In this document: piece by piece, positions 13,535-34,151 of the stretch
Layout of the letters: each line of letters opens with the position of its first letter
Numbering within the stretch: position 1 is the first letter of the stretch
Source: an uncultured Solirubrobacteraceae bacterium
GTDB lineage: Bacteria; Actinomycetota; Thermoleophilia; Solirubrobacterales; Solirubrobacteraceae
Direction of reading: 5' to 3'
DNA length: 64,000 nt
Assembly (NCBI GenBank): GCA_963766165.1
Contig: CAVXZC010000012.1
Span: 594,607-658,606, forward strand
The notes under the pieces: generated by a model
The model's input: the letters and a program-made list of their open reading frames with translations, nothing else
Told to the model about the DNA's origin: nothing
The model's database searches: none
Position numbers and translations under genes: made by a program

Positions 13535-14595
13535 TTCGCCTCCAGCGGCGCGACGTCCAGCGCCTCGGCTGCGGCTGCCAGCTCGTCGAGGCGCTCGGCG
13601 TCGATCGGTACGCCCTCGCGTCGCCGCTGCTGCGCGCGCTCCCACTCGATCTGGCCGGGCAGCTTGATCTCCTGCGCGCCCGGCGCGAGCGGGGCGGAGA
13701 CGATCTGCTCGATCAGCGCGTCCATCCGCGCCCGGAAGTCGGCGACCGGCGTGAAGCGGCCGATGTCGATGGCGATCAGGAGGTGGCCGACGTCCTGGTG
13801 GTCGGGCCCGAAGCAGTCCAGCCCGAACGCCGATCCCGTCAGCACGCCCGTCAGCGCGTCGACGACCACCGCGAGCGCGTAGCCCTTGGGCCCGCCGAGC
13901 GGGAACAGCGCGCCGAGCATCGCCGCGGACGGGTCAGTGGTCCGCTCGCCGCCCTCCGTATAGGCCCAGTCGTCGGGAATCGGCAGCCCGAGCCGCTCGT
14001 GCCAGCGGATCATGCCCTTGCCCGACGTGCTGTTGGCCATGTCGAGCAGCACGGGCCATTCGCGGCCGCTGGGCACGGCGACGGCCCAGGGGTTCGTCCC
14101 CACCACCGCCGTCGCGGCGCCCCAGGGCGCGATCTCCGGGCCGGCGTTGGTGAACGACAGGCCGATGCACCCGCGCTCGAGCGCGCGCTCGGCGTAGTAC
14201 GCGGCGACGCCGAAGTGCGTGCTGTCGCGCACGCCGACGGCGCCGATGCCGGACTCGGCCGCCAGGTCCAGCGCGAGCTCCATCGCCCGCGTCGCGGCCA
14301 CGTGGCCGGAGGCGCGGTGCGCGTCGAGGAGCGCCGTGGCCGGCGCCCGGCTCACCGTCTCCAGCCGCGCCGCCGGGTCGATCACCCCGGCTTGGATGCG
14401 GGCGTGGTAGCTGCCGATCCGCGAGACGCCCTGGCCCTGGCCGGGCAGCGAGCGCAGCGAGCCGGCCAGCAGCACGTCGGCGAACGTCTCGGCGTCGGGC
14501 GCCCGGAAGCCCATGCGCGCGGCGCAGCCGCGGCAGAAGCGCTCGAGCTCCGGGTACGGGACGAGGACCGTCGGTACGGTGGGCGCAGAGGACAT
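13531..14595 (-). CDS. Ldh_2 family (malate/L-sulfolactate/ureidoglycolate/piperideine-2-carboxylate) dehydrogenase or reductase
   Basis: 354 aa; GTNPWA, STSGKGM and HxG motifs typical of PF02615. First gene of the operon. Confidence 0.85.
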   Translation of the reverse strand: MSSAPTVPTVLVPYPELERFCRGCAARMGFRAPDAETFADVLLAGSLRSLPGQGQGVSRIGSYHARIQAGVIDPAARLETVSRAPATALLDAHRASGHVAATRAMELALDLAAESGIGAVGVRDSTHFGVAAYYAERALERGCIGLSFTNAGPEIAPWGAATAVVGTNPWAVAVPSGREWPVLLDMANSTSGKGMIRWHERLGLPIPDDWAYTEGGERTTDPSAAMLGALFPLGGPKGYALAVVVDALTGVLTGSAFGLDCFGPDHQDVGHLLIAIDIGRFTPVADFRARMDALIEQIVSAPLAPGAQEIKLPGQIEWERAQQRRREGVPIDAERLDELAAAAEALDVAPLEAN

Positions 14596-14630
14596 GGCGA
14601 GATCGCCCGGAGGCGATCGCCGGGACGCAG

Positions 14631-14663
14631 TTTCAATCTAAGCGCAGATTTTCACTCTGTCAA
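14631..14663 (-). promoter_or_regulatory. Copy 2 of the 33-bp promoter/operator element: TTGACA-17nt-TAGATT with AGAGTGAA and AGATTGAA direct repeats
   Basis: Plus strand tttcaatctaagcgcagattttcactctgtcaa. Lies between the XRE gene stop (14671) and the Ldh_2 start (14595). The leader also has the palindrome GGCGATCGCC (14612-14621). Confidence 0.5.
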
Positions 14664-14670
14664 GCCGCGC

Positions 14671-15255
14671 TCAGAACGTGGGCGGGGTGCAGACGAAGAT
14701 CATCTCCACCGTCTCCGCGCCCGCGTTGCCGAACGAGTGCACGAGCGCGCTGTCGAACGAGATCGAGTCGCCGGCCTCCAGCAGGTAGACCATCCCATTG
14801 ACCGTCACCGACAGCGCGCCGGAGACCACGGTCATGAACTCCTCGCCGGCGTGCGCGAACGGCGTCTCCTCGGTGGTGACGCCCGGCGGGATGATGTAGC
14901 GGACCACCTGCAGCGAGCGATCGAGGTCGGGGGTCATCATCAGCGCCGAGACGTCCTCGTCGTCGATCACGTGCGGGCTCAGCTCGCGCTGCTCGCCGCG
15001 GCGCACCACGGGCGACGCCGTGCGCTCCACGTGCAGCAGCCGCGCCACCGGGACGTCGAGCGCGTGGGCGATCTTGATCAGCGTGAAGAAGGCCGGATTG
15101 CCCTTGCCGCGCTCGAGCTGGCTGAGCCCGCCGATGCTCAGACCGCTCGTCCGGGAGATGTCCTCGAGCGTCAGCCCCTGCTCCTGACGCAGCCGCCGCA
15201 GCTGCTCCCCGAAGGCGCTCTGCAGGATGACCGGGTCAGGATGTCGATCCGACAT
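14671..15255 (-). CDS. XRE-family HTH transcriptional regulator with C-terminal cupin domain
   Basis: LRRLRQEQGLTLEDISRTSGLSIGGLSQLERGKGNP (HTH_XRE) followed by a cupin_2-like beta-barrel. Confidence 0.9.
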   Translation of the reverse strand: MSDRHPDPVILQSAFGEQLRRLRQEQGLTLEDISRTSGLSIGGLSQLERGKGNPAFFTLIKIAHALDVPVARLLHVERTASPVVRRGEQRELSPHVIDDEDVSALMMTPDLDRSLQVVRYIIPPGVTTEETPFAHAGEEFMTVVSGALSVTVNGMVYLLEAGDSISFDSALVHSFGNAGAETVEMIFVCTPPTF

Positions 15256-15323
15256 GGACCACGAGTCTAAGCCTGAGCCGAGCGCCTTGACGACGGTCTG
15301 AGCGGGCTCTACGGTGACCCGGG

Positions 15324-15707
15324 ATGAGCGTGGTCAGACACACGCCCGAGTCCCTCGCCCGCTGGGAGGAGGCCGACTCGCAGGACCCGGCGCGCGCCAA
15401 GCTGCGCGAGCTGACGGTGGCCTACGTGAGGGCTCAGGGCGGGCTGATGCTGGACGTCTGGCGCCTGTACATGGGGCCGTGGTTCGGCGAGCCGGAGATG
15501 ATGCTGCTCTCGGAGGTCGCCGAGCGGCTCGGCATCTCGGAGTGGCACGCGGAGAACATCGTCCGGGCCACGGACGCGGCGGTCGTCCCGCAGTGGCGGC
15601 GCACCGCCGAGTTCCGCGACTCCGAGCTCGGCGAGGCGGCCCAGCTGTCCTGGCCCGCCGCGTTCCAGCACGTCCTGCGCTTCCCCGACGACGGCAGCGA
15701 GGGTTAG
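15324..15707 (+). CDS. Small hypothetical protein (127 aa) with a possible HTH segment (SEVAERLGISEWHAENIVRA), divergent from the XRE gene
   Basis: Near-100% GC3 codon bias. A TTGACG-17-TACGGT promoter-like sequence lies upstream at about 15288-15316. Confidence 0.6.
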   Translation: MSVVRHTPESLARWEEADSQDPARAKLRELTVAYVRAQGGLMLDVWRLYMGPWFGEPEMMLLSEVAERLGISEWHAENIVRATDAAVVPQWRRTAEFRDSELGEAAQLSWPAAFQHVLRFPDDGSEG

Positions 15708-17830
15708 CCGCCCGCGTAGCGGGCGGCCACGACCCGCGGCTGCTCGACGGGTCGGCCCGCCTGGATCGACCAGGCCAGCCGGACGTACTGCGCGTGGCTC
15801 CACAGCAGCGGCGTGGCCGAGAGCGTGCCGCTACCGACCGGGCCGCCGCCCGGGAAGTCCGGGCTCCAGACCTGCTCGGGCAGCATGCCGCCATCGTTGG
15901 CCGCCGCGCCCATGTGCGCGAGCTGTGCGCGCGCGTCGGACGGGTCGCCGGCCAGCAGGTCGTACTCGCCGCGCTCGCCGCCGAAGATCGGCCAGACGCG
16001 CCCGATCGTCGTGTTGTTCGCCCAGTCGGTGGTCGGGTTGGCCGGGAAGCCGACGTCCCAGGGCGAGCCGTCCTTCTTCTCCCCGTAGCCGTCGAAGTCG
16101 TAACGGTGCCAGAACGGCCCGTCGCGGAGCTGCTGGTCGACCACCGCGATCGTGTTGCGGATCACGGGGTCGCTCGCCGGCTTGACGCCGAGGCGGACGA
16201 GCTCGAGGAAGCTGGGATCGACGACCGCGCGCTGGTCGACGCCGTTCGGGCCGCTGTCGCCGATGTCGTAGGGGGTGCCCGCGTCCGGGTTGCCGTCCTT
16301 GGTCACGCGCAGGTAGTAGGGACGCGGCGAGAACGGGCCGTTCGTGGTGGCCGTCCAGCCCTGGATGCGCCGCTGCCAGTCGTCGGCGGTCTGCAGGTAG
16401 CGCGCGGCCGAGGCCGGGTCGCCGTCGCGGCGGGCGATGTCGGCGGCGCAGACCAGCCCGGCGATCTCCGCCGCGGTCGTGCCCGGCGAGTAGCCGCCCT
16501 GGTTCTCCCAGCGGTCCTGCGGCGTGTCCGGCGCGCCCGGGTAGCTCACCAGGAAGTCCGCCGCCCGCTTGATGTGGTCGCGGTAGAGCGCGCCGCCGGT
16601 CTGACCGGTCTGCCAGGCGAGCACGATCGGCAGCGCCACCTCGTCCAGCTGCAGGTTCGTCCAGTGCGGCGTGCCGTCGACGGTCGAGTTCTGCGGGAAC
16701 GAGCCGTCGGGCTTCTGCTGGCGATCGAACAGGTAGTCGACGGCGCGGCGCGCGCCCGCCGTGTCGCCGGCGGCCAGCAGCGCGCTGGCGATCTGGTAGA
16801 GGTCGCGCGCCCACACCAGGTGGTACGCGCCCGAGGGGTTCTCCAGCCCGGTGCCCCAGGCCCAGGGCATCGTCGGCGAGGCGACGTAGGCGCCCCGGTA
16901 GGTCTTGTCCTCGCTGGCCGCGAGCGTCATCACCGACGTCTCGTAGAGCGCGCGGTTCGCCGCCGCCGGTGGGCGCTTCAGGCCGGCGAGGTAGCGCGCC
17001 CAGCCGCGGGCATAGGCCTGCTGAGCCGTGCTGTCGGCCAGCGAGGCGCGCGCCGCTGAGCGCGCGGCCGCCGGACCGGACCCGAAACCGACCGCGAGCG
17101 TGGTCCGCCGCCCGCCGCGCAGCCCGGTCAGCTGCGTGCGGCCCGTCTGGACCACGTTGCCGTCCGGCGCCGACGTGTAGGTCCAGTCCATGTGGAAGTC
17201 CTGCAGGTCCGTGTAGCCGTCGCTGGCGCCGAGGTAGCCGCTCGAGGTGCGCGTGAACTGCGGCGAGGCCACCATCGCGCTGCCCATCGACGCGTCGCCG
17301 GCCACGAGCGCGTGCCGCGTGCTCGTGCCGCTGTCGTCCATCCCGTTGTTGGAGAGGCTCGGGTCGAGCACGGCGTAGGCGCTGAGCTTCCGGCCGCTCA
17401 GCGAGGTCAGCCGCACGGCCACGCGCACGACGTCGCGCGCCGGGTCCGTGGAGTAGGTCTTGACCACCCGGAAGCGCCCCGGCTCCTCGTCGACCTGCCG
17501 GTAGACGAGGTCGCCCAGCGGCTGGACCGCCCGCCGGCTCGCGGCGCTGTCGCGCTCGGCGAACGTCTTCCCGTCGGAGACGACGAGGTCGAGCGTGCGC
17601 ACGCTCGGCGTGCCGAGGTCGGGATAGAACACCTCCGTCATCCCGCCTTGACCCAGCGTGAACCAGACGTGGCTCGCCGTGGTCGCGGACGTGCCGAACC
17701 CGTGCTTGTCGGCGCTCGTCCACGTCGCGTTCGCGCCGGGCGCTCCCGGCGCCGTCGCCGCGCGCGCGGCCGTGGTCATGCTCATCGTCAGCGCCGCCGC
17801 CAGCAGCGCCACCCCTGCGGACTTCGTCAT
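15704..17830 (-). CDS. Secreted glycoside hydrolase family 15 (glucoamylase/glucodextranase-like)
   Basis: Start MTKSAGVALLAAALTMSMTTAARA (signal peptide). Long GH15-type (alpha/alpha)6 catalytic region with conserved W/E-rich blocks. Track ORF 15704..18016 is over-extended. Confidence 0.8.
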   Translation of the reverse strand: MTKSAGVALLAAALTMSMTTAARAATAPGAPGANATWTSADKHGFGTSATTASHVWFTLGQGGMTEVFYPDLGTPSVRTLDLVVSDGKTFAERDSAASRRAVQPLGDLVYRQVDEEPGRFRVVKTYSTDPARDVVRVAVRLTSLSGRKLSAYAVLDPSLSNNGMDDSGTSTRHALVAGDASMGSAMVASPQFTRTSSGYLGASDGYTDLQDFHMDWTYTSAPDGNVVQTGRTQLTGLRGGRRTTLAVGFGSGPAAARSAARASLADSTAQQAYARGWARYLAGLKRPPAAANRALYETSVMTLAASEDKTYRGAYVASPTMPWAWGTGLENPSGAYHLVWARDLYQIASALLAAGDTAGARRAVDYLFDRQQKPDGSFPQNSTVDGTPHWTNLQLDEVALPIVLAWQTGQTGGALYRDHIKRAADFLVSYPGAPDTPQDRWENQGGYSPGTTAAEIAGLVCAADIARRDGDPASAARYLQTADDWQRRIQGWTATTNGPFSPRPYYLRVTKDGNPDAGTPYDIGDSGPNGVDQRAVVDPSFLELVRLGVKPASDPVIRNTIAVVDQQLRDGPFWHRYDFDGYGEKKDGSPWDVGFPANPTTDWANNTTIGRVWPIFGGERGEYDLLAGDPSDARAQLAHMGAAANDGGMLPEQVWSPDFPGGGPVGSGTLSATPLLWSHAQYVRLAWSIQAGRPVEQPRVVAARYAGG

Positions 17831-17879
17831 CTCGGCTCTCCTCTCCCGCCCCGGGTCGCCTACCCGGTGAGCGCCTTCG

Positions 17880-18892
17880 TCAGTCCGCGGGCAGCGCCGC
17901 GCGCAGGAAGCGCAGCCAGTTGGCGCCCAGCACGCCGGCGCGGGCCTCGGCGGGCGCGAGGTCGCCGATGCGCGGCCAGTCGGCCACCGAGTCCAGCTCC
18001 AGCGGCGTCTCGCCACGGCCGTGTCCCGCGTCGACGTCGCTGCCGATGCCGACCCGCTCCCAGCCGGCGATCCCGGCGATGTGGCGCAGGTGGGCGGCGG
18101 CGTGCTCGGCCAGCGTCACCGGCGGCGCGCCGGCCGACCAGCCCGGCGCCAGGAAGTCGTTGAGCATGGCGAGCCCGATCACGCCGTCGCGCTCGGCCAC
18201 CGCGCGGATCTGCTCGTCGGACAGGAAGCGGTTGAGCGGAATCCGGCCGGGGGCGGAGGTCATCAGCGCCCGGGCCGTCGCGTGTGTCACGCACAACGCG
18301 TGCTGGGGGAGCGGCAGCGCCTGCGCGAACGCCTCCTCGGACAGGTGGCTGGCGTCGTGGATGACGCCGAGGTCGGCCATCGCCTCCAGCAGCTCGGCGC
18401 CGATCGGCGCCAGGCCGCGGTCGGACCCGGTCCCGCCGGCGTAGCGCGTCGGCCCCCAGGCCAGCCCGATCATCCGCACGCCGCGCCGCCACCACTCCGG
18501 CAGGTCCCCGACCGCGACGATCGGGTCCGCGCCCTCGATCAGCAGCAGCAGGCCCGGAACGCGGTCGCCGGCGAAGCGGGCCAGGTGGTCCTCCAGCGTC
18601 GCCCGGCCGGTGACGATCCGCACGGCGCCGCGCGCTTCCCAGTCGCGGTAGACGCCCAGCATCTCCAGCGCCTGCGCCTCGGCCTCCTCGGGCGTGCGGT
18701 AGCCGTCCTCGGACGGCCCGAGCCAGGCGTCGGCGGGCTCCGCGAACAGCGTCGCGCCGACCAGCGCCACGCCCGCCGCCCCGAGCTCCGGCAGCGAGGT
18801 CAGCGCGCCCGACTCCCGCTCGGCGGGCACGGTGAGGTCGCGCCCGCTGTCCGCGCGGTCCAGGCGAGGTCGAGGTGGGCGTCGACGATCAC
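17880..18892 (-). pseudogene. Membrane dipeptidase (peptidase M19) with one apparent frameshift near 18845
   Basis: N-terminus VIVDAHLDLAW (HxD motif) is in the frame of track ORF 18800..19153. Remainder is ORF 17880..18830 (EGADP, HLSE, GSDVD motifs). GTG start overlaps the PolX stop (GTGA). Confidence 0.7.
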
Positions 18893-20628
18893 CGGGCGCG
18901 CTTGCGCAGTGCCGCGAACTCCGCCCACGGGCGGGTGTTGGCCACCTGCTCCGGGGTCAGCCAGGCGCGCCGCGCGGTGGCGATGCCGTAGCGCAGCAGG
19001 TCGAAGTTGCGGGCGCGAGTGGGCGTCGGAGTCGACCAGCACCAGCACGCCCGCCTCGGCGGCCGCGCGGGCGTGGACCTCGTTCATGTCGCGGCGGTCG
19101 GGCGCGGCGTTGATCTCGATCATCGTGCCCGTGCGCGCGGCCGCGGCGATCACCTGCGTGCATGTCGAGCGCGTATGGCGGGCGCGTCTCGATCTTGCGG
19201 CCGGTCGGATGGCCGATGGCGTCGACCAGCGGGTGCTCGATCGCGGCGACCATGCGGTCGGTCATCGCGGCCTCGGACATGGCGAACGACGTGTGGACCG
19301 AGGCGATCACCCAGTCCAGGCGGGCCAGCAGCTCGTCCGGGTAGTCGAGCGAGCCGTCGGGCAGGATGTTGACCTCGCTGCCGGCCAGCACGGCTGAGCC
19401 CGTCGAGCGCGGTCGTTGAGCGCGGCGATCTCGTCGATCCGCGCCTCCAGCGCCTCCGGCGTGACGTGGTTGCCGAAGCCGTGCGACGCGGAGTGGTCGG
19501 TGATCGCCAGGTACTCCCAGCCGCGGGCGAGCGCCGCCTCGGCCATCTGCTCGAGCGTCTGGCGCCCGTCCGACAGCGTCGTGTGGCAGTGCAGGTCGCC
19601 GCGCAGGTCCTCAGCGTCGACCAGCCGCGGCAGCGTGCCCTTCGGCCGCCGCCTCCAGCTCCCCGCGGCCCTCGCGCAGCTCGGGCGGGATCCACGGCAG
19701 CCCGAGCCGCGCGTAGACCTCCTCCTCGGTGGCGCAGCGCGTCGTCTCGCCCGTCGCGTCGTCGAGGATGCCGTACTCGGAGACGTGCAGCCCGCGGCGC
19801 ACCGCCGCCTCGCGCAGCTGCACGTTGTGCGCCTTGGCGCCGGTGAAGTGCTGCAGCACGTTGCCGAACTGGTCGGGCGCGACGACGCGCAGGTCGACCT
19901 TCATGCCCGAGTGCGTGACCACGCGCGCGCCCGCCTCGCCGCTGACTGCACGGACTCGCACCAGCGGCAGCTCGGCCAGCGTCGAGGTCAGCGCCAGCGG
20001 GTCGGACGCGGTGGCGATGATGTCGATGTCCTTCGCCGAGTCGGCCAGGCGGCGCAGCGAGCCGGCGATCTCCACCCGGTCGGACGCCGGGTGGTCGCGC
20101 AGCGCGCCGGCGATCTGCTCGGCCACCGGCAGCGCGCGCGAGAGCAGGATCCGCGGCGCGGGGCCGCCGCCGTCCTCCTGCTCGGCCAGCACGCGCAGCA
20201 GGTTCTCCTCCACCCGCGCGCCGAGCCCGCGGATCTTGCGGATCTCGCCGGCCTCGGCCTTCTCGCGCAGCGACTCCAGCGAGTCGACGCCCAGCTCGTC
20301 GTAGAGCAGCCGCGCCCGCTTGGGCCCGAAGCCGGGCAGGTGCATGACGGCGATCAGCCCGGCCGGGAACTTCGCCCGCAGCTTCTGCGGCGGCGGGGAT
20401 GTCGCCCGTCTCGTCCAGCGCCCGCAGCTTCTCCTCGAGCGTCTTGCCGATGCCCGGCAGCGAGGTCACCTTGCCCTCGCGGGTGAGGCCCATGACCGAC
20501 ACCGAGGCGTCGCGGACGGTCTTGGCCGCGGTGCGGTAGGCGATCACGCGGTAGGACACCGCGCCGTCGAGCTCGTAGAGGTCGCCGAGCTCGTCGAAGG
20601 CGGCGGCGATCTCGGCGTTCGTCTTCAT
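18889..20628 (-). pseudogene. polX: DNA polymerase X family protein with C-terminal PHP domain; at least 4 apparent frameshifts
   Basis: N-terminus MKTNAEIAAAFDELGDLYEL (HhH), middle GLGARVEEN...DIDII (pol beta-like), PHP blocks (ITDHS, HTSFAM, IEINA) spread over five track ORFs in different frames. Confidence 0.75.
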
Positions 20629-20655
20629 GGCATCCCGTTAACCTACGCGGCCTCC

Positions 20656-21340
20656 ATGGCCGGCTCCGTCTGGGTGATCCTGCCGACCTACGACGAGGCC
20701 GAGAACCTGGAGCCGGTCGTGGGCGGCGTGCGCGCGGCGCTGCCCGCGGCGCGCGATGCTCGTGGTGGACGACGACTCGCGCGACGGCACGGCGCAGCTC
20801 GCCGACGCGCTGGCGCGCGCCGACGCCGCCGTCGCGGTCCTGCACCGGCCGGGCAAGGCCGGGCTCGGCCGGGCCTACATGGCCGGCTTCGCCGCCGCGC
20901 TGGCCGGCGGGGCGGACTTCGTGGTCGAGATGGACGCCGACCTCTCGCACGACCCGGCCGACCTGCCGCGGCTCGTGGCGGCCGCGCGAGGCCGGCGCCG
21001 ACCTCGTGCTCGGCTCGCGCTACGTGCCCGGCGGCGGCGTCGAGAACTGGGGACTCGAGCGGCGCGTGCTCTCGCGCTTCGGCTGCGCGCTACGCCCGGA
21101 GCGTGCTCGGCGTGCGGGTGCGCGACCTGACCGGCGGCTTCAAGTGCTTCCGCGCCGACCGCGCTGCAGGCGATCGACTACCCGAGCGCGGGCGCGCAGG
21201 GCTACGTCGTTCCAGATCGAGCTGACCTGGCGCGGCGCTGCGCGCGGGACTGACCGTGGTCGAGCTGCCGATCACGTTCCGCGAGCGCCGGCTCGGGCGC
21301 TCGAAGATGTCCGCGCGGATCGCGCCGCGAGGCGGTCTGG
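20656..21340 (+). pseudogene. Glycosyltransferase family 2 (Dpm1/polyprenol-phosphate mannosyltransferase-like); at least 2 frameshifts
   Basis: VILPTYDEAENLE, DDDSRDGT, EMDADLSHDP and GSRYVPGGG blocks in three different frames. Confidence 0.65.
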
Positions 21341-21416
21341 CGCGTTCCGGCCCTGCGGTTCGGGCCGCGGCGGTGGCGGGGGCTCGTGCCCGAGGCCCCG
21401 GCTGCCGATGCAGTAC

Positions 21417-22123
21417 CCAATGAAGGCTGATCGGACTCGCTGTCGTACAGGGCTGGCCGCAGACCGCGCGCGACGCTGCGCCGCTGGACGCCGCGCCCCC
21501 GGGTCGCGCGCCGCGGAATGGGCGCTCGGATCGCTCGTGGTCGCCGTGGCGCTGCTCGCCGCCACCTGGTACGTGGCCGTCCTCAGCCGGCCCGACCCGA
21601 CGCCGTATGCCTTCCCCGGGCTGACCCGGCCCGCACACGTCGGCGACTTCCTCTTCGTCCTCTACCGCAACGGCCTCGTGCTGGCGCTGCACGCGCATGG
21701 CCTGCGTCGCCGGCTTCATCGCCGGCTCGCCGCGCTACCTGGATCCGGGCCGCGGGCTGAGCGCGCGCATGCACGCGCAACGCCGGCCGCGGCGCGATCG
21801 CCTTCGTGGCCGCCGCGACGCTGTTCTCGCTGTCCACGCAGGCCTCGCGCTCGGCATGCGGCGCCGCGCGACCTCTCGGCGGAGCTCGGCGTGTCCCCGC
21901 TCGTGCTGCTGGCGACGCTGACGCCGCACGCGCTGCCCGAGCTGTTCGCGCTCTTCCTGCCGCTGGCGGCGTGGCTGCTGGCCGGCCGCCGCGGGGCGTG
22001 GGACGAGCTGCTGGCCGCCACGCTCGCCACGACGGCGTGCGCGGTGCCGCTCGCTGATCGGCGCGGCGGCGATCGAGACCTGGGTGACACCGGGCCTGCT
22101 GCGCGGTCTGGCCGGGTAGTCTC
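21417..22123 (+). pseudogene. SpoIIM/DUF95-like integral membrane protein, frameshifted
   Basis: Hydrophobic segments LGSLVVAVALLAATWYV, GDFLFVLYRNGLVLALHA, AIAFVAAATLFSL, LVLLATLTPHALPELFALFLPLAAWLL in at least 3 frames. Confidence 0.5.
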
Positions 22124-22186
22124 CGCCCTGGGCCGCGCCCAGCCGGTCGCTATACTTTCTGAAGCGACCCGACCCGAGAGGACACC

Positions 22187-22513
22187 ATGGCAGGCACCAT
22201 CACCGACGTCAGCGACAGCAACTTCCAGGCCGAGGTGCTCGAGAACGGACACCGCGGTGCTGGTGGACTTCTGGGCCCCGTGGTGCGGCCCGTGCCGCGT
22301 GGTCGCCCCCGCGCTCGAGGAGATCAACTCGCGAGCGCGAGGACCTGCGCGTCGTGAAGCTGAACATCGACGACAACAGCAGACCGCCGCGCAGTACCAG
22401 GTGCTGGCGATCCCGACGATGATCCTGTTCCGCAACGGCCAGGAGGCAAGCGCATCCAGGGCGCGATGCCGAAGAACCGGATCGTGCAGCAGCTCGAGCC
22501 GGCGCTCGCCTAG
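22187..22513 (+). pseudogene. trxA: Thioredoxin with apparent frameshifts
   Basis: MAGTITDVSDSNFQAEVLENG ... VDFWAPWCGPCR ... YQVLAIPTMILFRNGQE ... QQLEPALA in different frames. TATACT -10 box and GAGAGGA ribosome-binding site upstream. Confidence 0.7.
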
Positions 22514-23160
22514 AGGCGAGCCGCCAGCCACGCCTGCGCCGGCGCGATGTGCGCCGGGTCGATCTGGTGCGCGGCGTCGGACTCGTGGTACTCCACGGTC
22601 GAGGCCGCCGCGCTCCAGCTGCTCGCGCGCGGTGCGGGCGAACTGCGACGTCGATCACCGGGTCGCGGCGGCCGTGCGCGATGAACGCCGGGAGGCCCTG
22701 CGCGGTCGGTCAGCGACGGCCGCCAGCCGCCACGGTCGGGATGAAGCCGGAGAAGGCAGGATGCCCCGCCGGCGCCGGCCGGTCGGCGCCGAGGCCGAGC
22801 GCGTAGCTCATCACCGAGCCCATCGAGAAGCCGCCGAGCACGGTCCGCTCCGGGCCGATGCCCGTGCGCTCCCACAGCTCGTCGTGGAAGTCCGCCAGCG
22901 CGGACGAAGGCCGCGGCGAACGTGTCGGGGTCGGGGTAGCCGACGCGCGGCACCACGTACCAGTGGTGGCCCGGCCAGCCGGGCAGCGATCAGCGGCGCC
23001 GCGCGGCGTGACGACGTGCAGCCGGCGCGTCGGGGTCGAGCACGTCGGCGAGGCCGAGCAGGTCGTGCTCGTCGGCGCCGCGGCCGTGATGGAGGACGAG
23101 CAGGCCCTCGGCCTCGCCGGCCGCGGGACGCTCGCGGTAGGTCGAGCGCGCTCATCCGCG
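22510..23160 (-). pseudogene. Phospholipase/carboxylesterase-family alpha/beta hydrolase (MhqD-like), frameshifted; boundary with next gene approximate
   Basis: GGFSMGSVMSYALGLG nucleophile elbow, LHVVTPRG, C-terminus EYHESDAAHQIDPAHIAPAQAWLAARL. Confidence 0.55.
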
Positions 23161-23169
23161 TCCGCGGCG

Positions 23170-24082
23170 CGCGGGTTCTCGACGGGCGTCAGCGGCGCCT
23201 CGAGCTGCGGCGCGCAGGTGCTCGTGCTGCGCGCGGCAGGCGCAGCGACTCGCCGAGGTGCTCGGGGTCCTCGTCGACGGCGAAGCCCGGCGTGAAGCGT
23301 GGCGATCTCGAACAGCACGCCGCTGCGGCTCGCGGAAGTAGATCGACTTGAAGTAGTCGCGGTCGCGGACGTCGGTGACCGCGCCGCCGAGCTCGCCGGA
23401 TGCGCGCCTGCCAGGCGAGGTGGTCCGCGTCGGGCGACGCCCAGGCGATGTGGTGCACGCGTGCCCGCGCCCTGCGCGGCCGCGGCCGGCCGGCGGCGCG
23501 TCGTAGCCCCAGTGGAACCTGCGGTCCGGCCCGTCGAGCAGGTACTCGCCGCCGCCCAGGTGCGTGAAGCCGAGCAGGTCGGTGAGCAGCGCGCGTCGCG
23601 GACGCCGGCGAAGGCGGCGTAGGCGCGGGCGCCCTCGACGCCGGCGATCGCGTGCTCGGCCGGGATCTCCGGGTGCTGCGGCCCGCAGCGGCGGGTTGCC
23701 GTCGGCGCGACGACGAGCTCGAGCGCCAGGCCGTCGTAGTCGGCGAAGCGCAGGACGCCGTCGCCGCGCGCGGGCTCGCTGGTCGCGCCAGGCGCTGGGC
23801 CCAGAAGTCCAGCGCGCGCCTCGGAGGGCACGCCGAGCTGGAGCGTGTGGATCATCCCGGCGCCGGCGCGGCCGCGGGCCGCGCCGGGGAACTCGAACCA
23901 GGTCAGGATCGAGCCGGGCGTGCCGGGCTCGTCGCCGAAGTAGAGGTGGTAGGCCGTCGGGCTGGTCGAAGTTGACCGTCTTCTTGACCAGCCGCAGGCC
24001 GAGGAGATCGGCGTAGAAGTCGAGCGTTGGCCTGCGCGTCGCCCGTGATCATCGTGATGTGGTGGAGGCCCGTGAAGTTCAT
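23170..24082 (-). pseudogene. VOC-family ring-cleaving dioxygenase (MhqO-like), frameshifted
   Basis: MNFTGLHHITMITGDAQANA ... GMIHTLQLGVPSEA ... LRFADYDGLALELVV ... HHIAWASPDADH in several frames. Confidence 0.55.
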
Positions 24083-24143
24083 GCCGTCACTGTAGCGCGA
24101 TCTGATTGCACATGCAACTACATCTGGCTGCCAGGCTTGTCCG

Positions 24144-24611
24144 GTGCGCATGGGCCGGGTCCTCGCTCTCGTGGCCGCCGGCCTGGCGGTGTGCATCGGC
24201 GGCCTGCTCCTCGCCGTCTACCTGTCGCGCGACGAGGACAACGTGCAGTCGGACAACCTGCTCTCGGAGGCGTTGACGCGCCAGGTGACGATCTCGCAGG
24301 ACCCGGCGAACGGGCTGCACGGAGTCGTGCGGCTGGCCGACGTCGCCCCGTTCGCCTGGGACCGGGTCCTGCTGGTCGCGCCGGGTACGCCGCGCGGCGC
24401 CATCACGCGCCGGCTCGGCCGGACGTGGACCGGGATCGACACGATCGACGGCGGCGCCGAGCTGATCTTCCTGCGCGGCGGCGAGGTGGTCCGCCTCGCC
24501 GACTACCGCGGCAACGGGCGCTTCGCCGGCTTCCCGCGGCCGTTCGCCGAGCTGCCGCGCTCGCGCGCCGTGTTCGTGGTGCGCGACCTGGTGATCCGAC
24601 CGCGCCGTTAA
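24144..24611 (+). CDS. Hypothetical membrane-anchored protein (155 aa)
   Basis: N-terminal TM segment VLALVAAGLAVCIGGLLLAVYL; good GC3 bias; single frame. Confidence 0.55.
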   Translation: MRMGRVLALVAAGLAVCIGGLLLAVYLSRDEDNVQSDNLLSEALTRQVTISQDPANGLHGVVRLADVAPFAWDRVLLVAPGTPRGAITRRLGRTWTGIDTIDGGAELIFLRGGEVVRLADYRGNGRFAGFPRPFAELPRSRAVFVVRDLVIRPRR

Positions 24612-24988
24612 CGGTTGCGGCGACGGGCCTGGCGCTGGGCGCGGGTCTTGGCGCGCGCCTTGGCCTTCGCCTGCAGCTTGTGCTTGTGCGGGCCCTGGTC
24701 GCGCGCGCGGCCGACCGAGTCGAGCTCGCCCTCCGGCAGCCCGCGGCGGGCGTCGCGGGCGATGAACCAGCCCATGATCGCGAAGCCGACCACGAGGACG
24801 CCGCCGATCAGGAAGAGCGAGTTGCGGCCGGTCGAGGAGTCGCTCGACGGCGTGGCCGTCGGCGTGGCCACGGCGGTGACGGTCGGCGCCGGCTGCGGCA
24901 GCGGGCCGAACGGGCTCTGCTGCGCCGCCGCGGCCGGAGCCAGGGCGAGCGCGAAGACGGTGGCGATGAGGGCGACGCGACGCGACAT
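24608..24988 (-). CDS. Small secreted/membrane protein with basic C-terminal tail (126 aa)
   Basis: MSRRVALIATVFALALAPAAAA signal-like N-terminus, TM LFLIGGVLVVGFAIMGWFIA, then K/R-rich tail. Confidence 0.5.
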   Translation of the reverse strand: MSRRVALIATVFALALAPAAAAQQSPFGPLPQPAPTVTAVATPTATPSSDSSTGRNSLFLIGGVLVVGFAIMGWFIARDARRGLPEGELDSVGRARDQGPHKHKLQAKAKARAKTRAQRQARRRNR

Positions 24989-25005
24989 GGGCCGCCACAG
25001 GGTAG

Positions 25006-26307
25006 TCACGCCGGCGCCCCGGTCAACGCCCAGCGTGAGCCGGCGAACCGCGCGGCGCAGACCACGAGGCGCACGGCGATCAGCGCCAGCAGCCCCCACC
25101 ACACGCCGACGATCCCCCAGCCCTGGTGCAGGGAGAGCAGCGCGATCGGGACGTAGACGGCGGCGGCGGCGAGCATCCCCCACATCAGATAGCGAGTGTC
25201 GCCCGCGCCGATGAGAATCCCGTCGAGCGCGAACACCGCGCCGTTGGCCGGCATCATCACGGCGAACAGCGGCCAGATCTCGTGCGCGCGGCGCGACGAC
25301 CGCCTCGTCGCCGGTGAACAGCCGCGGGACGGCGTCGCCCAGCGCGAGCAGCACGAGCGCGAACAGCGTGCCGATGGCGACGCTCCAGCCGATCATCCGC
25401 ACGGCGGCGGCCCGCGCCCCGGACGCGTCGCCGGCGCCGAGCATCCGCCCGACCATCACCTGGCCGGCCACGGCGATCGCATCGAGGATCAGCGCCAGGA
25501 AGACCCAGAGCTGGAACGCCACCTGGTGGGCGCCGAGGCTGGCCGCGCCCGACGCGGGCGAGCACCGCGGAGGCGACGAGGAACGAGCCGGTCAGCGCGG
25601 TCGTGCGGACGGCGATCTCCGAGCCGATCCGGGCCAGCGGGCGCATCTTCGCCGGGTGCGGGCGCTCGAAGCCGGCCCGCCGCTGGACGGCCACGAAGCC
25701 CAGCGCCATCCCGGCCTGGGCGATCACGGTGCCCCAGGCCGAGCCGGCCAGCCCCCAGTGGAAGCCGTACACGAACACCAGCTCGAGCGCCACGTTGGCC
25801 GTGTGGGCGCAGACGAGGATGACCAGCGGCGTCCTGAGGTCGGAGATCCCGCGCAGGAAGCCCTGGCCGGCGCCGGCGAGCATGAACAGCGGCGCGCCGA
25901 GGGCGGCGATCCGCAGGTAGACGATCGCGCCGTCGTAGACCTCGCCGGTCCCGCCCATCAGCGTGACCAGCGGTCCGGCCAGCGAGCTCGATCAGCGCCA
26001 GCAGGACGACGCCGATGCCCAGCGCCAGCCACAGCGCCTGCGAGCCGAGCGCCGCGGCCGCCTCGTCGTGACCGGCCCCGTGCAGGCGGGCCACCTGGGC
26101 GGTGGTGCCGTAGGTGAGGAAGTTGAAGATCGTGAACGCCGTCGACATCACCGTGGCGGCGATGGCCAGCGAGGCGAGCTGCGTCGTGCCGAGATGGCCG
26201 ACGATCGCCGTGTCGACGAGCACGTACAGCGGCTCGGCGGCCAGCGCACCCAGCGCCGGCACGGCGAGCACGAGGATCCGGCGGTCGTAGGGCGAGCGCA
26301 GCCGCAC
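25006..26307 (-). pseudogene. MATE-family efflux transporter (DinF-like); at least 3 frameshifts
   Basis: N-terminal MRLRSPYDRRILVLAVPALGALAAEPLYVLVDTAIVGHLG, middle and C-terminal TM blocks in track ORFs 25489..26307, 25257..25958, 24608..25522 and 25006..25260. Confidence 0.7.
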
Positions 26308-26441
26308 GCCCTACGACGCTAGCGATTCCGCGGGCAGGTACGTGCGTCGTCCAGGGGGTCGCGGGCGCCGCCTGGCAAGGACGCAGACCCGCAGGAATCC
26401 CTCCGGGATTTCAAGTGGTCGAGGACACAGCCAGGCGGTGA

Positions 26442-26915
26442 TCAGCGGCCGCTTGGCGGCGTGCGTACCTGCCCGTGGGGCCGCAGGCGCCGGGACGCTT
26501 CGACCATGGCCGAATAGCCCGTGCAGCGGCACAGGTTCCCGGCGAGCGCCTCGCGGATCTCGCGCTCCGTCGGCTCGGGGTGCTCGCGCAGGTAGGCGTC
26601 GAGCGTCATCAGGATGCCGGCGGTGCAGAACCCGCACTGCAGCGCGTGGTGCTCGTGGAACGCCGCCTGCAGCGGGTGGTCGCCCAGGCCCTCGATGGTC
26701 CGCACCGCTCGGCCGTGCGCCTGGATCGCCAGCGTGAGGCACGCGCGGACGGGCTCGCCGTCGAGCTGGACGGTGCACGCGCCGCAGACGCCGTGCTCGC
26801 AGCCCACCTTCGTCCCGGTCAGCCCGGCGTCATGGCGGATGAAGTCGCTCAGCAGCGTGCGCGGCTCGACCTCGCCGGCGTGCGGCGCGCCGTTGAGGTG
26901 CACGGTGATCCTCAT
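26442..26915 (-). CDS. Molybdenum hydroxylase small subunit, (2Fe-2S)-binding (CoxS/XdhC-type)
   Basis: MRITVHLNG...CEHGVCGACTV...QCGFCTAGILMT...CRCTGY. ATGA overlap with upstream gene. Confidence 0.9.
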   Translation of the reverse strand: MRITVHLNGAPHAGEVEPRTLLSDFIRHDAGLTGTKVGCEHGVCGACTVQLDGEPVRACLTLAIQAHGRAVRTIEGLGDHPLQAAFHEHHALQCGFCTAGILMTLDAYLREHPEPTEREIREALAGNLCRCTGYSAMVEASRRLRPHGQVRTPPSGR

Positions 26916-27655
26916 GCTGGGAGCGCCGCTTGCGCCAGCGCTCTGACGAGCGCCCCCGCGTGGTCGCCGGTCGCGGCGCGGGCGAGCGCCTCGTCGAGCG
27001 TCGCGGCGCTGATCACGCGCGGCCCGAGCGTGGCCAGCGTCGTCCGGTCGGGCGCCTGGACGACGGCGACCGCCGCGTCGGCGAACGCGCCGTGCGTGCG
27101 GGCCAGCTCGGCGAACCCGGTGCGCACCCCCGGTGGCAGCGGCGCGACCTCGATCGAGTGCAGGAGCTCGCCGTCGGCGATCGCCGTCATCGGCGGCCCC
27201 TCGAACAGCTCCGCTGCGGTCAGGGTGCGCGTGCCGGCCCGCGACCGGAGGCGGAAGCGCGCGCCGAGGGCGGCCAGGGCGACGGGCAGCTCGGCCCGGG
27301 GGTCCGCATGCGCGACCGACCCGCACACCGTCCCGCGCGACCGGGTCGCCGCGTGCCCCACGTGGCGCACGGCCTGGGCCAGCAGCGGCCAGTGCCGCGC
27401 CACGAGCGGCGAGCGCTCCAGCGCCGCCTGGCGCACCGTCGCGCCGATCTGCAGCCCGCCGCCGACGCGCCGCAGGAGCCCGAGCTCGGCGATCCCGTTG
27501 ATGTCGACCAGCCGCGCCGGCCGCGCGAGCCGGAAGTTGAGCAGCGGCACGAGGCTCTGCCCTCCGGCGAGCACGCGCGAATCCGGCACGGCGAGCAGCT
27601 CGAGCGCCTCGCCCAGCGTCGCGGGCGCGAAGTACGCGAACGGCGCCGGCTTCAC
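26912..27655 (-). CDS. Molybdenum hydroxylase FAD-binding medium subunit (CoxM-type)
   Basis: VKPAPFAYFAPATLGEALELLA...AGGQSLVPLLNFRLA. GTG start with GTGA overlap. Confidence 0.85.
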   Translation of the reverse strand: MKPAPFAYFAPATLGEALELLAVPDSRVLAGGQSLVPLLNFRLARPARLVDINGIAELGLLRRVGGGLQIGATVRQAALERSPLVARHWPLLAQAVRHVGHAATRSRGTVCGSVAHADPRAELPVALAALGARFRLRSRAGTRTLTAAELFEGPPMTAIADGELLHSIEVAPLPPGVRTGFAELARTHGAFADAAVAVVQAPDRTTLATLGPRVISAATLDEALARAATGDHAGALVRALAQAALPA

Positions 27656-28077
27656 CGCCGCCCCCGCAGGGCCAGCCCGACGAGCGCGGCCGCGCCGGCG
27701 GCGGCGAGCGCCCGCTTGGCCGGCGCGGAGAGGCCGCGCGCCGCGGGCGCGGGCGCGGGAGGAGCGACCGGCGCGGCCATCGCAGGCGCGGCGGCGCCGG
27801 CCACCGCCGCGAGCAGCGCTCCCGCTGCGACGTCGCCGAACACCTCGGCGGCCAGCGCCACCTCCGTGCCCGCTCCGGCCGGTGACAGCGCGGCGGTGAC
27901 CGTGGCCGTGGCCGGCGACGCGCCGCGCACGCCCTGCAGGCGGAAGCGGGCGACGCGCTCGTCGTCGTCGACCTCCTCCAGCACGGCGGTGCCGGTGTAG
28001 CCGGCGAGCGCGCCGCGCAGCGAGGGGTGGGCGAGCAGTGTGCGCCACACGTCGTCGACCCCGGCGGCCACCCTCAT
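27652..28077 (-). CDS. SRPBCC/CoxG-like protein
   Basis: 141-aa C-terminal part of track ORF 27652..29352 (MRVAAGVDDVWRTLLAHPSL...). ATGA overlap with the large-subunit stop. Confidence 0.7.
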   Translation of the reverse strand: MRVAAGVDDVWRTLLAHPSLRGALAGYTGTAVLEEVDDDERVARFRLQGVRGASPATATVTAALSPAGAGTEVALAAEVFGDVAAGALLAAVAGAAAPAMAAPVAPPAPAPAARGLSAPAKRALAAAGAAALVGLALRGRR

Positions 28078-30128
28078 CGCAGCGCCCGCCAGACCTTCTC
28101 GGCGGTGAAGGGCGGGTCGACGTGGATCCCGCCGAGCGCGTCCGTCAGCGCGTTCGCCACGGCGGGCGGGGCGCCGATCGTGCCCGCCTCGCCGATCCCC
28201 TTGGCGCCGAGCGGGTTCAGCGGCGAGGGGGACTCGACGAACTCGGTGGCGATCGGCGGGACGTCGGCGGCGGTGAGCAGGCTGTAGTCGAGCAGCGACG
28301 CGGCGACCGGCTGGCCGGCCTCGTCGTGGACGACCTCCTCGGTGAGGACCGCGCCGAGGCCCTGGACGGCACCGCCGACGACCTGGCCCTCGGCCAGCAG
28401 CGGGTTGACGATCCGGCCGGCGTCGTCGACCGCGACGAGGCGGCGCACGCGCACGCGGCCGGTCGCGCGGGCCACCTCGACGACCGCCGCGCACGCGCCC
28501 GAGGTGAACGCCTGCTCGGACTCGAAGCGGGCGGAGCCGAGCGCCTCCTCGCCCGCGTCGCGGCGGGCCAGCGCCTCGTCGCAGGCCAGCGCGACGGCGG
28601 AGCCGCCCATGGCGGTCGAGCGGCTGGCGAAGGAGCCGATGCTCTCCGGCAGCCCGGCGCTGTCGCCGGTCAGCACCTCGATGTCGGCCAACTCCAGCCC
28701 CAGGCGCTCGGCCGCGATCTGGGCGAACAGGGTCTCGTGGCCCTGGCCCGACGGCGTCGAGCCGACCCGCACGACCGCGCGGCCGTCGCGCAGCCGCACC
28801 TCGGCCCGCTCCCACAGACCGCCCGAGCGCTCGACGGCCAGCGCGACGCCCGTGCCGACGAGCACGTCGCCGTCGTCGCCGTGCTCGGGCCGGACGAGCT
28901 CCAGCGCGCGGTCCAGGCAGCGCTCGTAGTCGCCCGAGTCGTACGTCCAGCCCAGCGCGGTCGTGTACGGGAAGCTCCGCACGAGGTTGCGCCGGCGCAG
29001 CTCGGCCGGGTCGAGACCCAGCGCCCGCGCGGCGGCGTCGACCGTCCGCTCCAGCAGGAAGATCGCCTCGGGCCGGCCCGCGCCGCGGTACGGCGCGGTC
29101 GGGACCTTGTCCGTGCGCGCGCCCGTCAGCCCGACCTCGACCGCCGGGATGTCGTACGCGCCGGCGATCAGCATCGCCATCGTGTGCGCCGGGATCGCCG
29201 TGCTGGGCAGCAGGTACGCACCGAGGTCGGCCAGCAGCCGCGCCCGCAGCCCGAGCATCCGCCCGTCGGCGTCCAGCGCGAGCTCGACCGCGCCCCGCGC
29301 GCCCCGGCCCTGCGGCGCCGACAAGAAGCTCTCGCGCCGGTCCTCCACCCACTTGACCGGCCGGTCGAGCCGCAGCGCGGCGAGCGCCACCAGCGTCGTC
29401 TCGATCGGCAGCGTGCCCTTGGAGCCGAACGCGCCGCCCACCTCGGGCACGCGCACGCGGATCGACGCCTCGTCGATCCCCAGCGTCTGCGCCAGCTGGG
29501 CCCGCGGCCGGTGCGCGCCCTGCGACGACGTCCAGACCGTCAGCCGCGCACCGTCGCCCGCCGCGAGCGCGCCGCGCGTCTCCATCGGCACCGCGGCCAG
29601 CCGCGGGATCGCGTGCTCGGCCCGCACGACGTGCGCGGCGGCCGCGAACGCGCCCGCGACGTCGCCGCCGCGGCGCTCCCAGCGCAGCAGCGCATCCGCC
29701 GCGCGCGGGTCGACCACCGCGTCCAACGGCTCATAGTCGACCGCGACGAGCTCCGCCGCGTCCTCGGCCAGTGCCCGCGTCTCCGCCACCACGGCGGCCA
29801 CCGGCTGGCCCACATAGCGCACCTCGTCGCGGGCCAGCAGCGGGTGCGGCGCGTCCGCCAGGTCGAGCCCGGGCGCCGCGTCGACGCGCGGCGGCGCCGT
29901 GCCCGCCAGGTCGTCCGCGGTGAGGATGGCCAGCAGCCCGGGCGCGCGCGGCGGCAGGCTGCCGCCGCGGATCCGGGCGCGCGCGTGCGGGCTGCGCACG
30001 AACGCGACGTGCGCCGCGCCCTCCGCCGGCACGTCGTCGAGGAACTGCGAGCGCCCGCGGAGGATGCGCTCGTCCTCGACGCGCCGCACCGGCCGCCCGA
30101 CGAACCGGCCGAGATCGACTGCCGCCAC
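28074..30128 (-). CDS. Molybdopterin-binding large subunit of a xanthine dehydrogenase/CO dehydrogenase-family hydroxylase
   Basis: About 685 aa from GTG (LVAAVDLGRFVGRPVRRVEDERILRG). Active-site loop APYRGAGR (form II-like). Track ORF 28074..31403 is over-extended. Confidence 0.85.
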   Translation of the reverse strand: MAAVDLGRFVGRPVRRVEDERILRGRSQFLDDVPAEGAAHVAFVRSPHARARIRGGSLPPRAPGLLAILTADDLAGTAPPRVDAAPGLDLADAPHPLLARDEVRYVGQPVAAVVAETRALAEDAAELVAVDYEPLDAVVDPRAADALLRWERRGGDVAGAFAAAAHVVRAEHAIPRLAAVPMETRGALAAGDGARLTVWTSSQGAHRPRAQLAQTLGIDEASIRVRVPEVGGAFGSKGTLPIETTLVALAALRLDRPVKWVEDRRESFLSAPQGRGARGAVELALDADGRMLGLRARLLADLGAYLLPSTAIPAHTMAMLIAGAYDIPAVEVGLTGARTDKVPTAPYRGAGRPEAIFLLERTVDAAARALGLDPAELRRRNLVRSFPYTTALGWTYDSGDYERCLDRALELVRPEHGDDGDVLVGTGVALAVERSGGLWERAEVRLRDGRAVVRVGSTPSGQGHETLFAQIAAERLGLELADIEVLTGDSAGLPESIGSFASRSTAMGGSAVALACDEALARRDAGEEALGSARFESEQAFTSGACAAVVEVARATGRVRVRRLVAVDDAGRIVNPLLAEGQVVGGAVQGLGAVLTEEVVHDEAGQPVAASLLDYSLLTAADVPPIATEFVESPSPLNPLGAKGIGEAGTIGAPPAVANALTDALGGIHVDPPFTAEKVWRALR

Positions 30129-30161
30129 GAGCGGCGAGGTTAGTGGGAAGCTGTCGCGCGC

Positions 30162-31001: not shown

Positions 31002-31013
31002 GGTACGCGCAGG

Positions 31014-31472
31014 ATGTACGAGCTCGACCGGCCGGAGGAGTGCTCGATCGGACGCGCCATGGAGGTCCTCGGCGAGCGCTGGACCTTCCTGATCCTGCGC
31101 GAGGCGTTCTACGGCGTGCGCCGCTTCTCCGACATGCAGCGCAACCTCGGCATCGCCCGCAACATGCTCTCCACGCGGCTGCAGACGCTCGTCGGCGCCG
31201 GGATCCTCCAGCGCCGGCTCTACCAGGCCGAGCCGGCGCGCTACGAGTACCGCCTGACCGAGGCCGGGCGCGATCTCTATCCGGCGATCGTCACGCTGAT
31301 GCGCTGGGGCGACAAGCACCTGCAGGGCGAGTTCGGCCCGCCGGTCGTCCTGCGCCACAACAGGTGCGGCCACGCCGCCGACCCGCGGCTCGTCTGCGGG
31401 CACTGCGGCGAGGAGCTGCAGGCCCGGGATGTGACGCCCGAGGCCGCAGTCACGCCGCGGGCGGCGGCGTAG
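31014..31472 (+). CDS. HxlR-family winged-helix transcriptional regulator
   Basis: CSIGRAMEVLGERWTFLILREAFYGVRRFSDMQRNLGIARNMLSTRLQTL. Confidence 0.9.
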   Translation: MYELDRPEECSIGRAMEVLGERWTFLILREAFYGVRRFSDMQRNLGIARNMLSTRLQTLVGAGILQRRLYQAEPARYEYRLTEAGRDLYPAIVTLMRWGDKHLQGEFGPPVVLRHNRCGHAADPRLVCGHCGEELQARDVTPEAAVTPRAAA

Positions 31473-34144: not shown

Positions 34145-34151
34145 TCGCATA

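Follow-up and report, generated by a model that had tools for sequence, protein, structure and literature searches.

Eight consecutive frameshifted genes in a Solirubrobacteraceae contig probably reflect local consensus errors rather than gene decay

Results

Between about 18,850 and 25,980 (~7 kb) of the window, the whole 64-kb stretch of DNA analysed here, lie eight consecutive genes that are out of frame. They code for an M19 dipeptidase (affected at its N-terminus), DNA polymerase X (PolX), a family-2 glycosyltransferase (GT2), a SpoIIM-like protein, thioredoxin (Trx), an esterase, a glyoxalase/dioxygenase and a MATE transporter, identities that were verified through the intact orthologs of relatives. 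A run of consecutive frameshifted genes at this location had been claimed in an earlier note on this DNA, and the claim is borne out by three kinds of evidence. Segmented by GC3 phase, the stretches 1-18,864 and 26,467-40,018 fall into pieces the size of genes (850-2,200 bp), whereas 18,865-26,314 yields pieces that are short or blurred. Pfam scans, run on stop-free pieces of reading frames, place the HHH_8, thumb and PHP domains of PolX in three different frames, and positions 1-92 and 94-159 of the MatE profile in two. Finally, the proteins of four relatives match the window solely as chains of HSPs that hop between frames. In the flanks, domains are full-length and each occupies a single frame.

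All the genes from PolX to MATE were assigned by frameshift-aware alignment, together with Pfam (PolX, GT2, Trx, esterase and MATE), the proteins of relatives (PolX, esterase and MATE) and ortholog annotation (GT2, SpoIIM-like, Trx, esterase and dioxygenase). The M19 membrane dipeptidase gene (17,883-18,892, minus strand), recognized by Pfam PF01244 (profile positions 30-276 in one frame), M19 matches in the PDB and direct reading, loses its N-terminal VIVDAHLDLAW frame near 18,850; this event, read directly from the sequence, is the left-most frameshift, and the remainder is intact. The gene starts with a GTG at 18,892 that shares bases with the TGA stop of the polX gene (GTGA). For polX itself (18,889-20,631, minus strand), the aligner finds five to six events and six extra bases are located, near 20,385, 19,643, 19,408-19,412 (two bases), 19,160 and 19,015; the corrected protein is free of stops and 84-87% identical to intact orthologs. 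Seven +1 insertions interrupt the GT2 gene (20,638-21,427, plus strand), near 20,755, 20,981-20,993, 21,088, 21,158, 21,207, 21,235 and 21,324, and seven to eight events the SpoIIM-like membrane protein gene (21,430-22,101, plus strand), of which about seven are +1 (near 21,432, 21,458-21,466, 21,488-21,518, 21,697, 21,775, 21,868 and 22,052). The thioredoxin gene (22,163-22,510, plus strand) has four, +1 at 22,248 and 22,327 and -1 at 22,378 and 22,448, and its corrected product is 84% identical to the ortholog of the relative L001. About eight events affect the Abhydrolase_2 carboxylesterase (22,516-23,160, minus strand), mostly +1 (22,601, 22,646, 22,904, 22,990, 22,997, 23,029 and 23,142), with a -1 at 22,732. 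The density is highest in the gene for the two-domain protein of the glyoxalase/extradiol-dioxygenase family (23,169-24,117, minus strand), where some 13-14 events, again mostly +1, span 23,208-24,088. The MATE efflux transporter gene (25,009-26,307, minus strand) carries three +1 insertions, near 25,291, 25,550 and 25,973-25,980, and here the patch ends on its right side.

In total, the patch holds about 50 indel events; the one to five per gene proposed earlier is too low a figure, as several genes need far more. The only intact genes inside the patch are, as the earlier note had it, two small hypothetical ones, a 155-residue protein (24,144-24,611, plus strand; ~61-63% identity to orthologs) and its neighbour (24,611-24,988, minus strand), both with zero frameshifts in the frameshift-aware alignment (24,144-24,605 and 24,611-24,988).

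Counting only window-specific indels, that is, those absent from every aligned relative, there are 40 of +1, four of +2 and seven of -1, and hardly any that are larger. The ratio of +1 to -1 events (40:7) has a binomial p of ~1e-6. The inserted single bases are of any type, and no shared sequence motif was seen at the insertion sites by inspection. Homopolymer context, raised in the earlier note, was examined: just eight of the 40 insertions repeat an adjacent base, the other 32 producing no run, which leads us to reject homopolymer error as the explanation. Event density follows a smooth hump over unrelated genes on both strands, with 5-9 events in every 500 bp between 21 and 24 kb.

The same defect is found elsewhere. 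The earlier description of the flanks as intact holds for the single-frame, full-length domains mentioned above, but further shredded patches exist in the window. A second one includes the C-terminal half of FtsH (49,679-50,632, minus strand), with six events (+2, -1, +1, +1, -1, +1); once corrected, it is ~75% identical to homologs, without stops. The C-terminal domain of RarA/MgsA (54,258-54,504, plus strand), identified by phase segmentation and domain split, lies in two frames that part at ~54,345, within a blurred patch at 52.0-54.75 kb. The phase of a 5'-3' exonuclease gene (43,173-44,050, plus strand; phase segmentation and domain profile) changes near 43,518, and the profile of the N-terminal domain matches in another frame over roughly its first 100 positions. 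Splits also affect a GGDEF gene and DUF1385. Apparent in-frame stops at 35,768-36,922, on the other hand, are merely two small genes sharing one phase.

An independent ENA contig from a related organism (L081), with Flye-style naming, also contains dozens of frameshifts, overwhelmingly +1 and without stops, at positions that differ from those in the window. The closest DNA relative, and the one independent sequence found to be nearly identical, is an 816-bp SPAdes contig of coverage 1.4 that spans one insertion site only, and there it has a 46-nt deletion of its own and a stop. Exact-sequence look-up places the gene calls for the PolX and MATE fragments, and for a fumarase that is intact, on a single NCBI/ENA contig of 814,474 bp. 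In a collection of 5.8 billion sequences, the window's own gene calls were the only proteins to exceed 92% identity to the PolX piece, so that no clean, independent assembly of this species turned up.

Discussion

We consider first whether the block could consist of genuine, very recent pseudogenes, a native syntenic block inactivated, along with several other loci, by real frameshifts in a living cell. The frameshifts are, after all, present in the deposited sequence. Mycobacterium leprae and leaf-nodule Burkholderia are examples of pseudogene-rich genomes under reductive evolution. As in the window, the Burkholderia genomes show runs of adjacent genes with disrupted frames (PMC6054270). Pseudogenes of reductive evolution, however, display a deletion bias, indels of varied size, nonsense mutations and a relaxed dN/dS; the patch shows none of these. 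Natural bacterial pseudogenes have a deletion bias and a wide range of indel sizes (PMC2817411; PMC6054270), which the 40:7 excess of +1 events and the near absence of larger indels contradict; the indels in the patch are insertion-biased, nearly all of 1-2 nt and unaccompanied by stops. Moreover, the frame-corrected alignments cover whole ortholog proteins at 63-87% identity and, as had been claimed before, contain essentially no in-frame stops along the corrected paths to the orthologs. Measured against L001, dN/dS is 0.23 for PolX (0.21-0.28 in intact relatives) and 0.14 for Trx (0.14-0.29); with both values inside the range of intact relatives, no relaxation of purifying selection is seen in these disrupted genes. 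The slightly higher values for GT2 and the dioxygenase are expected because codons are misaligned beside frameshifts. Thus, about 50 frameshifts would have accumulated with essentially no nonsense codons and unchanged dN/dS, in genes that include typically essential or housekeeping ones (FtsH, RarA, TrxA, PolX), and L081, the assembly of a different organism, has the pattern too, at sites of its own. On this evidence, true pseudogenes are very improbable.

A real but localized, insertion-biased mutational process, for example untemplated addition of single nucleotides during repair, acting in kilobase-scale patches on Solirubrobacteraceae chromosomes, and so recently that selection would have left no further mark, would account for a spectrum that is unusual for the sequencing platforms that can be confidently named, and for its recurrence in L081. 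We know of no such process in bacteria. Selection on the affected genes is not relaxed, cells would lose FtsH, TrxA and RarA together, and the reappearance of the pattern in a second, similarly styled assembly suggests the pipeline rather than biology; we regard this process as highly improbable.

The earlier note had also entertained a decaying segment, duplicated or horizontally acquired. Synteny with relatives does end on the left at the PolX stop (18,892), and a 3.1-kb gene of the relatives is absent at 24,124/24,145. Yet five relatives, L001, L002, L003, L006 (S. soli DSM 22325) and L013, are collinear with the block, and in them the same genes form clean, gene-sized phase segments and are uninterrupted; the order PolX-GT2-SpoIIM-Trx-esterase-dioxygenase...hyp-hyp-MATE is kept in at least five relatives. 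The GC content of the patch (0.73-0.76) is like that of the flanks, the window contains no mobile-element genes, tRNA and Rfam scans of the 64 kb gave no matches, and no second copy of the block, polX and trx included, is present within the 64-kb window, to which the search was confined. The GTGA overlap of the PolX stop with the M19 start, the extension of the frameshift zone across that junction and the identical damage in unlinked patches likewise argue against a duplicated or acquired segment, which can hardly be sustained. The GTGA overlap, together with a frameshift that lies past the junction, also makes a chimera joined at 18,892 unlikely. Programmed recoding, in which slippage of the ribosome or during transcription would put the frames right in vivo, would agree with the absence of stops after correction and with nothing else, and is effectively refuted by some 50 sites, up to 14 per gene, that share neither a slippery motif nor a homopolymer context, and by the uninterrupted orthologs of relatives.

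We therefore favor the view, to which we assign a probability of about 0.9, that the patch represents local consensus errors in the deposited long-contig assembly and not gene decay, because +1 events dominate the spectrum, signs of decay are lacking, with dN/dS unchanged, and the defect turns up again in further patches and in L081. Sequencing error was also the reading preferred in the earlier note, and the same evidence supports it. Judging from sequence comparison, the genes of the block are almost certainly intact in the organism, as ordinary, conserved Solirubrobacteraceae genes that are single-copy in the window. The deposited sequence would hold about 50 spurious extra bases between ~18,850 and 25,980, nearly all single and outside homopolymers, each of which would break the frame and cause gene callers to emit fragments. 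As to the cause, we infer, rather than read from the data, that the long-read consensus was poorly supported locally, most likely through a drop in coverage or through a mixture of co-occurring strains merged into a single consensus.

Residual indel errors in long-read assemblies reportedly fragment gene calls, a point attributed to Watson and Warr in 2019. The proovframe preprint (10.1101/2021.08.23.457338), which addresses this problem, documents the error profiles of long reads and the persistence of frameshifts after polishing, and the window resembles such cases in that single-base indels break conserved ORFs into fragmented calls, protein-guided correction restores the frames, the contig is very long (814 kb) and L081 shares the defect. 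The window differs from the usual case in that the errors occupy patches of a few kilobases in a clean contig, favor insertions by ~6:1 and avoid homopolymers. Tens of kilobases to the left and right of the patch are clean in the same contig, so that a local cause is needed. A dropout of coverage driven by GC can be rejected as the source of the patchiness: patches and clean stretches do not differ in GC, that of the 7-kb patch equals that of its flanks, and a stretch of 82% GC is clean. The closest relatives, related MFD MAGs, were assembled from Nanopore reads alone, with Flye and one round of Medaka (PMC12313526). The usual residual errors of Nanopore are, in at least one account, errors in homopolymer length (PMC9262707), and the non-homopolymer insertions found here differ from this classic type; the 6:1 excess of insertions and the scarcity of substitutions resemble the error profile of PacBio CLR more closely.

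The biological significance of the patch is small, the genes being ordinary. In practice the finding does matter: public long-contig MAGs can hold kilobase patches with ~1% insertion error inside clean contigs, and a GC3-phase scan combined with frameshift-aware alignment finds such patches without reads. The PolX, MATE and FtsH fragments of this contig are already separate entries in protein databases. Patches of this kind inflate the counts of "pseudogenes" and hypothetical fragments, lower estimates of completeness and may pass for genome decay.

Results

The GC content of the window, about 75%, opens spurious ORFs in every frame, so that ORF lists alone are uninformative; coding phase was read from third-position GC, a sharp signal, by means of a sliding plot and a seven-state Viterbi segmentation. 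Phase segments are gene-sized (850-2,200 bp) at 1-18,864 and 26,467-40,018 but short at 18,865-26,314, with periodicity wholly absent at 20,988-23,474. At each phase change in the left flank, the frame being left ends in a stop codon, so that these points are true gene boundaries. Both flanks carry full-length Pfam domains, each in a single frame (on the left an Opp-type ABC transporter, aminotransferases, Ldh_2 and a GH15 glucodextranase; on the right a CoxS/M/L-like molybdopterin dehydrogenase, fumarase, an aldehyde dehydrogenase and a TPP enzyme). Within the interval, single domains are split between frames: HHH_8, thumb and PHP of PolX are spread over three frames of the minus strand, and the MatE match changes frame between profile positions 1-92 and 94-159. 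The segmentation and the domains therefore uphold the earlier description of a frameshifted gene run between intact flanks. Separately, for a Band_7/SPFH gene at 31539-32612 (-) the match within its frame is limited to profile positions 82-175, and the phase scan switches briefly near 32,503; the gene may carry an isolated frameshift within an otherwise clean stretch.

The region from 18,895 to 26,807 is collinear with the related sequence L001 (about 76-84% nucleotide identity over aligned blocks), and the order PolX-GT2-SpoIIM-Trx-esterase-dioxygenase...hyp-hyp-MATE is common to the window, Solirubrobacter soli DSM 22325 (L006) and the related sequences L002, L003 and L013. Intact orthologs confirmed all the gene names proposed earlier. 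The same segmentation gives clean, gene-sized segments in the relatives (PolX, for example, is one segment of 1,650-1,760 nt), and the shredding thus belongs to the window sequence and not to these genes. A scan of a genome collection found no identical genome in it; the best match to a PolX piece, at 88% amino-acid identity, places the window in the Solirubrobacteraceae.

Frame corrections were counted with a purpose-written frameshift-tolerant protein-to-DNA aligner, with orthologous proteins as query and the window as target. PolX required corrections near 20,385, 19,643, 19,408-19,412, 19,160 and 19,015. MATE required three and Trx four; for GT2 the count was seven, for the SpoIIM-like gene seven to eight, for the esterase about eight and for the dioxygenase, the highest, 13-14. 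None was needed in control genes at 30,162-31,442 or in the hypotheticals at 24,144-24,605 and 24,611-24,988, the two small genes already held to be intact. The M19 reading frame from the GTG at 18,892 (-) begins 'VIVDAHLDLAW', which we take to resemble the M19 N-terminal metal-binding motif, and stays open for about 31 codons, whereas the body of M19 runs on in another frame; this places one further event near 18,850, in agreement with the frameshifted N-terminus reported earlier. The total is about 50 events across 7.1 kb, and the earlier figure of 1-5 indels per gene, which several genes exceed, was an undercount.

Alignment of the DNA against up to eight relatives isolated the window-only indels. 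Insertions dominate, 40 of one base and 4 of two bases, against 7 deletions of one base; in-frame or larger differences are few. The excess of single-base insertions over deletions is significant (binomial p ~1e-6). The inserted bases (C 15, G 12, A 8, T 5) share no visible motif at their sites; just 8 of the 40 equal a neighbour and 32 create no run, which rules out homopolymer-length error. Event density reaches 5-9 per 500 bp at 21.0-24.0 kb and falls to 0-3 at both edges, a hump that spans unrelated genes of both strands.

Frame-corrected alignments cover the orthologs at 63-87% identity essentially without stop codons, as had been noticed from the sequence. By the Nei-Gojobori method, dN/dS against L001 in the corrected genes matches that of intact relatives against L001: 0.23 versus 0.21-0.28 for PolX (0.52 for the more distant L013), 0.14 versus 0.14-0.29 for Trx and 0.59 versus 0.46-0.67 for the SpoIIM-like gene. 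The slightly higher values for GT2 (0.51 versus 0.31-0.38) and the dioxygenase (0.42 versus 0.34) are expected, because codons next to frameshifts misalign.

The phase scan flags further patches at 40153-45679, 49987-51237 and 52005-54751. Pfam places FtsH AAA and M41 fragments in differing frames and the first ~100 positions of the N-terminal domain profile of a 5'-3' exonuclease in another frame; a GGDEF domain is partial, a DUF1385 domain lacks its first 100 profile positions, and MgsA_C (RarA/MgsA) changes frame near 54,345, precisely at the step from profile position 29 to 30. Against homologs, FtsH shows six events in 950 nt (+2, -1, +1, +1, -1, +1 in the window) at about 75% identity, with no stops. 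At 52,005-53,717 codon periodicity is absent and there are no Pfam matches. GC content does not differ between patches and clean stretches of the window. The intact flanks of 18800-26310 thus stand, but the defect is not confined to that interval, since the FtsH, RarA and exonuclease patches lie outside it.

Exact-sequence look-up found a single 814,474-bp NCBI/ENA contig that bears as gene calls the intact fumarase, the PolX fragment (244 aa; 19,614-20,345), the MATE fragment (233 aa; 25,260-25,958) and a 175-aa FtsH fragment with its out-of-frame stretch; the frameshifts are therefore present in the deposited assembly. The size of the contig suggests long reads.

The defect recurs in L081 (1-21083; ENA ERZ25039594 contig_38806, Flye-style naming), an independent 125-kb contig from a related Solirubrobacteraceae organism, with about 93% identity in PolX. 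L081 has dozens of frameshifts over at least 13 kb, overwhelmingly +1 and roughly one per 80-150 nt, 10 of them in PolX alone; they lie at other positions than those of the window, and the corrected proteins are 58-90% identical with almost no stops. The nearest DNA relative of the PolX 5' region, L082 (1-816; ENA ERZ27317016 NODE_25545, cov 1.39), has the upstream intergenic sequence of PolX in common with the window and was the one independent sequence found to be nearly identical to it. This low-coverage short-read contig carries errors of its own: its 3' end is scrambled, it contains an in-frame TAG, and a 46-nt deletion lies at the only window insertion site that it covers.

Discussion

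We consider it about 90% probable that the patch at ~18,850-25,980 is a quality defect of the public assembly and not a biological feature. Sequencing error, the reading favoured in the earlier note, is supported by the observed indel spectrum, the lack of decay, the patchiness, the recurrence in L081 and the provenance. Genuine recent pseudogenes are improbable: in natural bacterial pseudogenes, indels lean towards deletion and vary widely in size (PMC2817411; PMC6054270), the opposite direction to the insertion-biased spectrum found here, and the absence of stops, the unchanged dN/dS, the essential genes affected and the same pattern in L081 also contradict decay. A living cell would hardly tolerate damage to FtsH, RarA and TrxA together, and that two organisms should independently decay the same housekeeping genes with the same odd spectrum is very unlikely; a technical cause common to both assemblies explains the recurrence simply. 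A real insertion-biased mutational process, in favour of which nothing positive speaks, is more improbable still.

We give even less credence to the decaying acquired or duplicated segment that had been the other option at first reading, against which speak the synteny kept with relatives, the native composition, the single copy within the 64-kb window, the absence of tRNA and mobility genes from the window (1-64000, where no Rfam family reached the gathering threshold either) and the junction with M19. There the M19 dipeptidase GTG start at 18,892 (-) overlaps the PolX TGA stop (GTGA), which suggests that 18889-18893 is a genuine, translationally coupled junction and not a chimeric join; synteny with all 80 compared relatives stops at this PolX stop. 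Programmed recoding, with about 50 sites without a motif and uninterrupted orthologs, is the least probable reading.

As to the technical cause of the assembly defect, many of the closest relatives come from the Microflora Danica MAGs, assembled with Flye from Nanopore reads alone and given a single Medaka polish (PMC12313526), and it is well recognised that some frameshifts outlast polishing (proovframe preprint 10.1101/2021.08.23.457338). Raw PacBio CLR errors comprise ~8% insertions, 3% deletions and 2% substitutions, whereas Nanopore insertions and deletions are about equal (same preprint); the spectrum of the window is closer to the insertion-heavy PacBio CLR profile than to Nanopore. The consensus would be locally weak in the patch, possibly from a drop in coverage or from a strain mixture collapsed into one sequence. 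That the dense error zone ends exactly at 24,124/24,145, the site of an extra 3.1-kb gene in relatives, is a hint of strain heterogeneity.

This gene, a ~3.1-kb LuxR/BTAD/AAA_16-type regulator, sits between the dioxygenase and a 155-aa hypothetical in L001, L002, L003, L013 and L081; the window has only ~20-30 nt between two divergent genes at 24124-24145, and the difference may reflect a true deletion, variation between strains or a collapse during assembly. At 26445-30110, a CoxS/CoxM/CoxL-like molybdopterin dehydrogenase operon separates MATE from the alpha/beta hydrolase at 30,144. Four relatives (L013, L019, L029 and L039) have the hydrolase directly after MATE, and at least the CoxS-like gene is also present in L001; the operon appears to be a lineage-specific insertion or loss.

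The patch is of low scientific interest except as a caution on public assemblies, in which such defects are easily detected.
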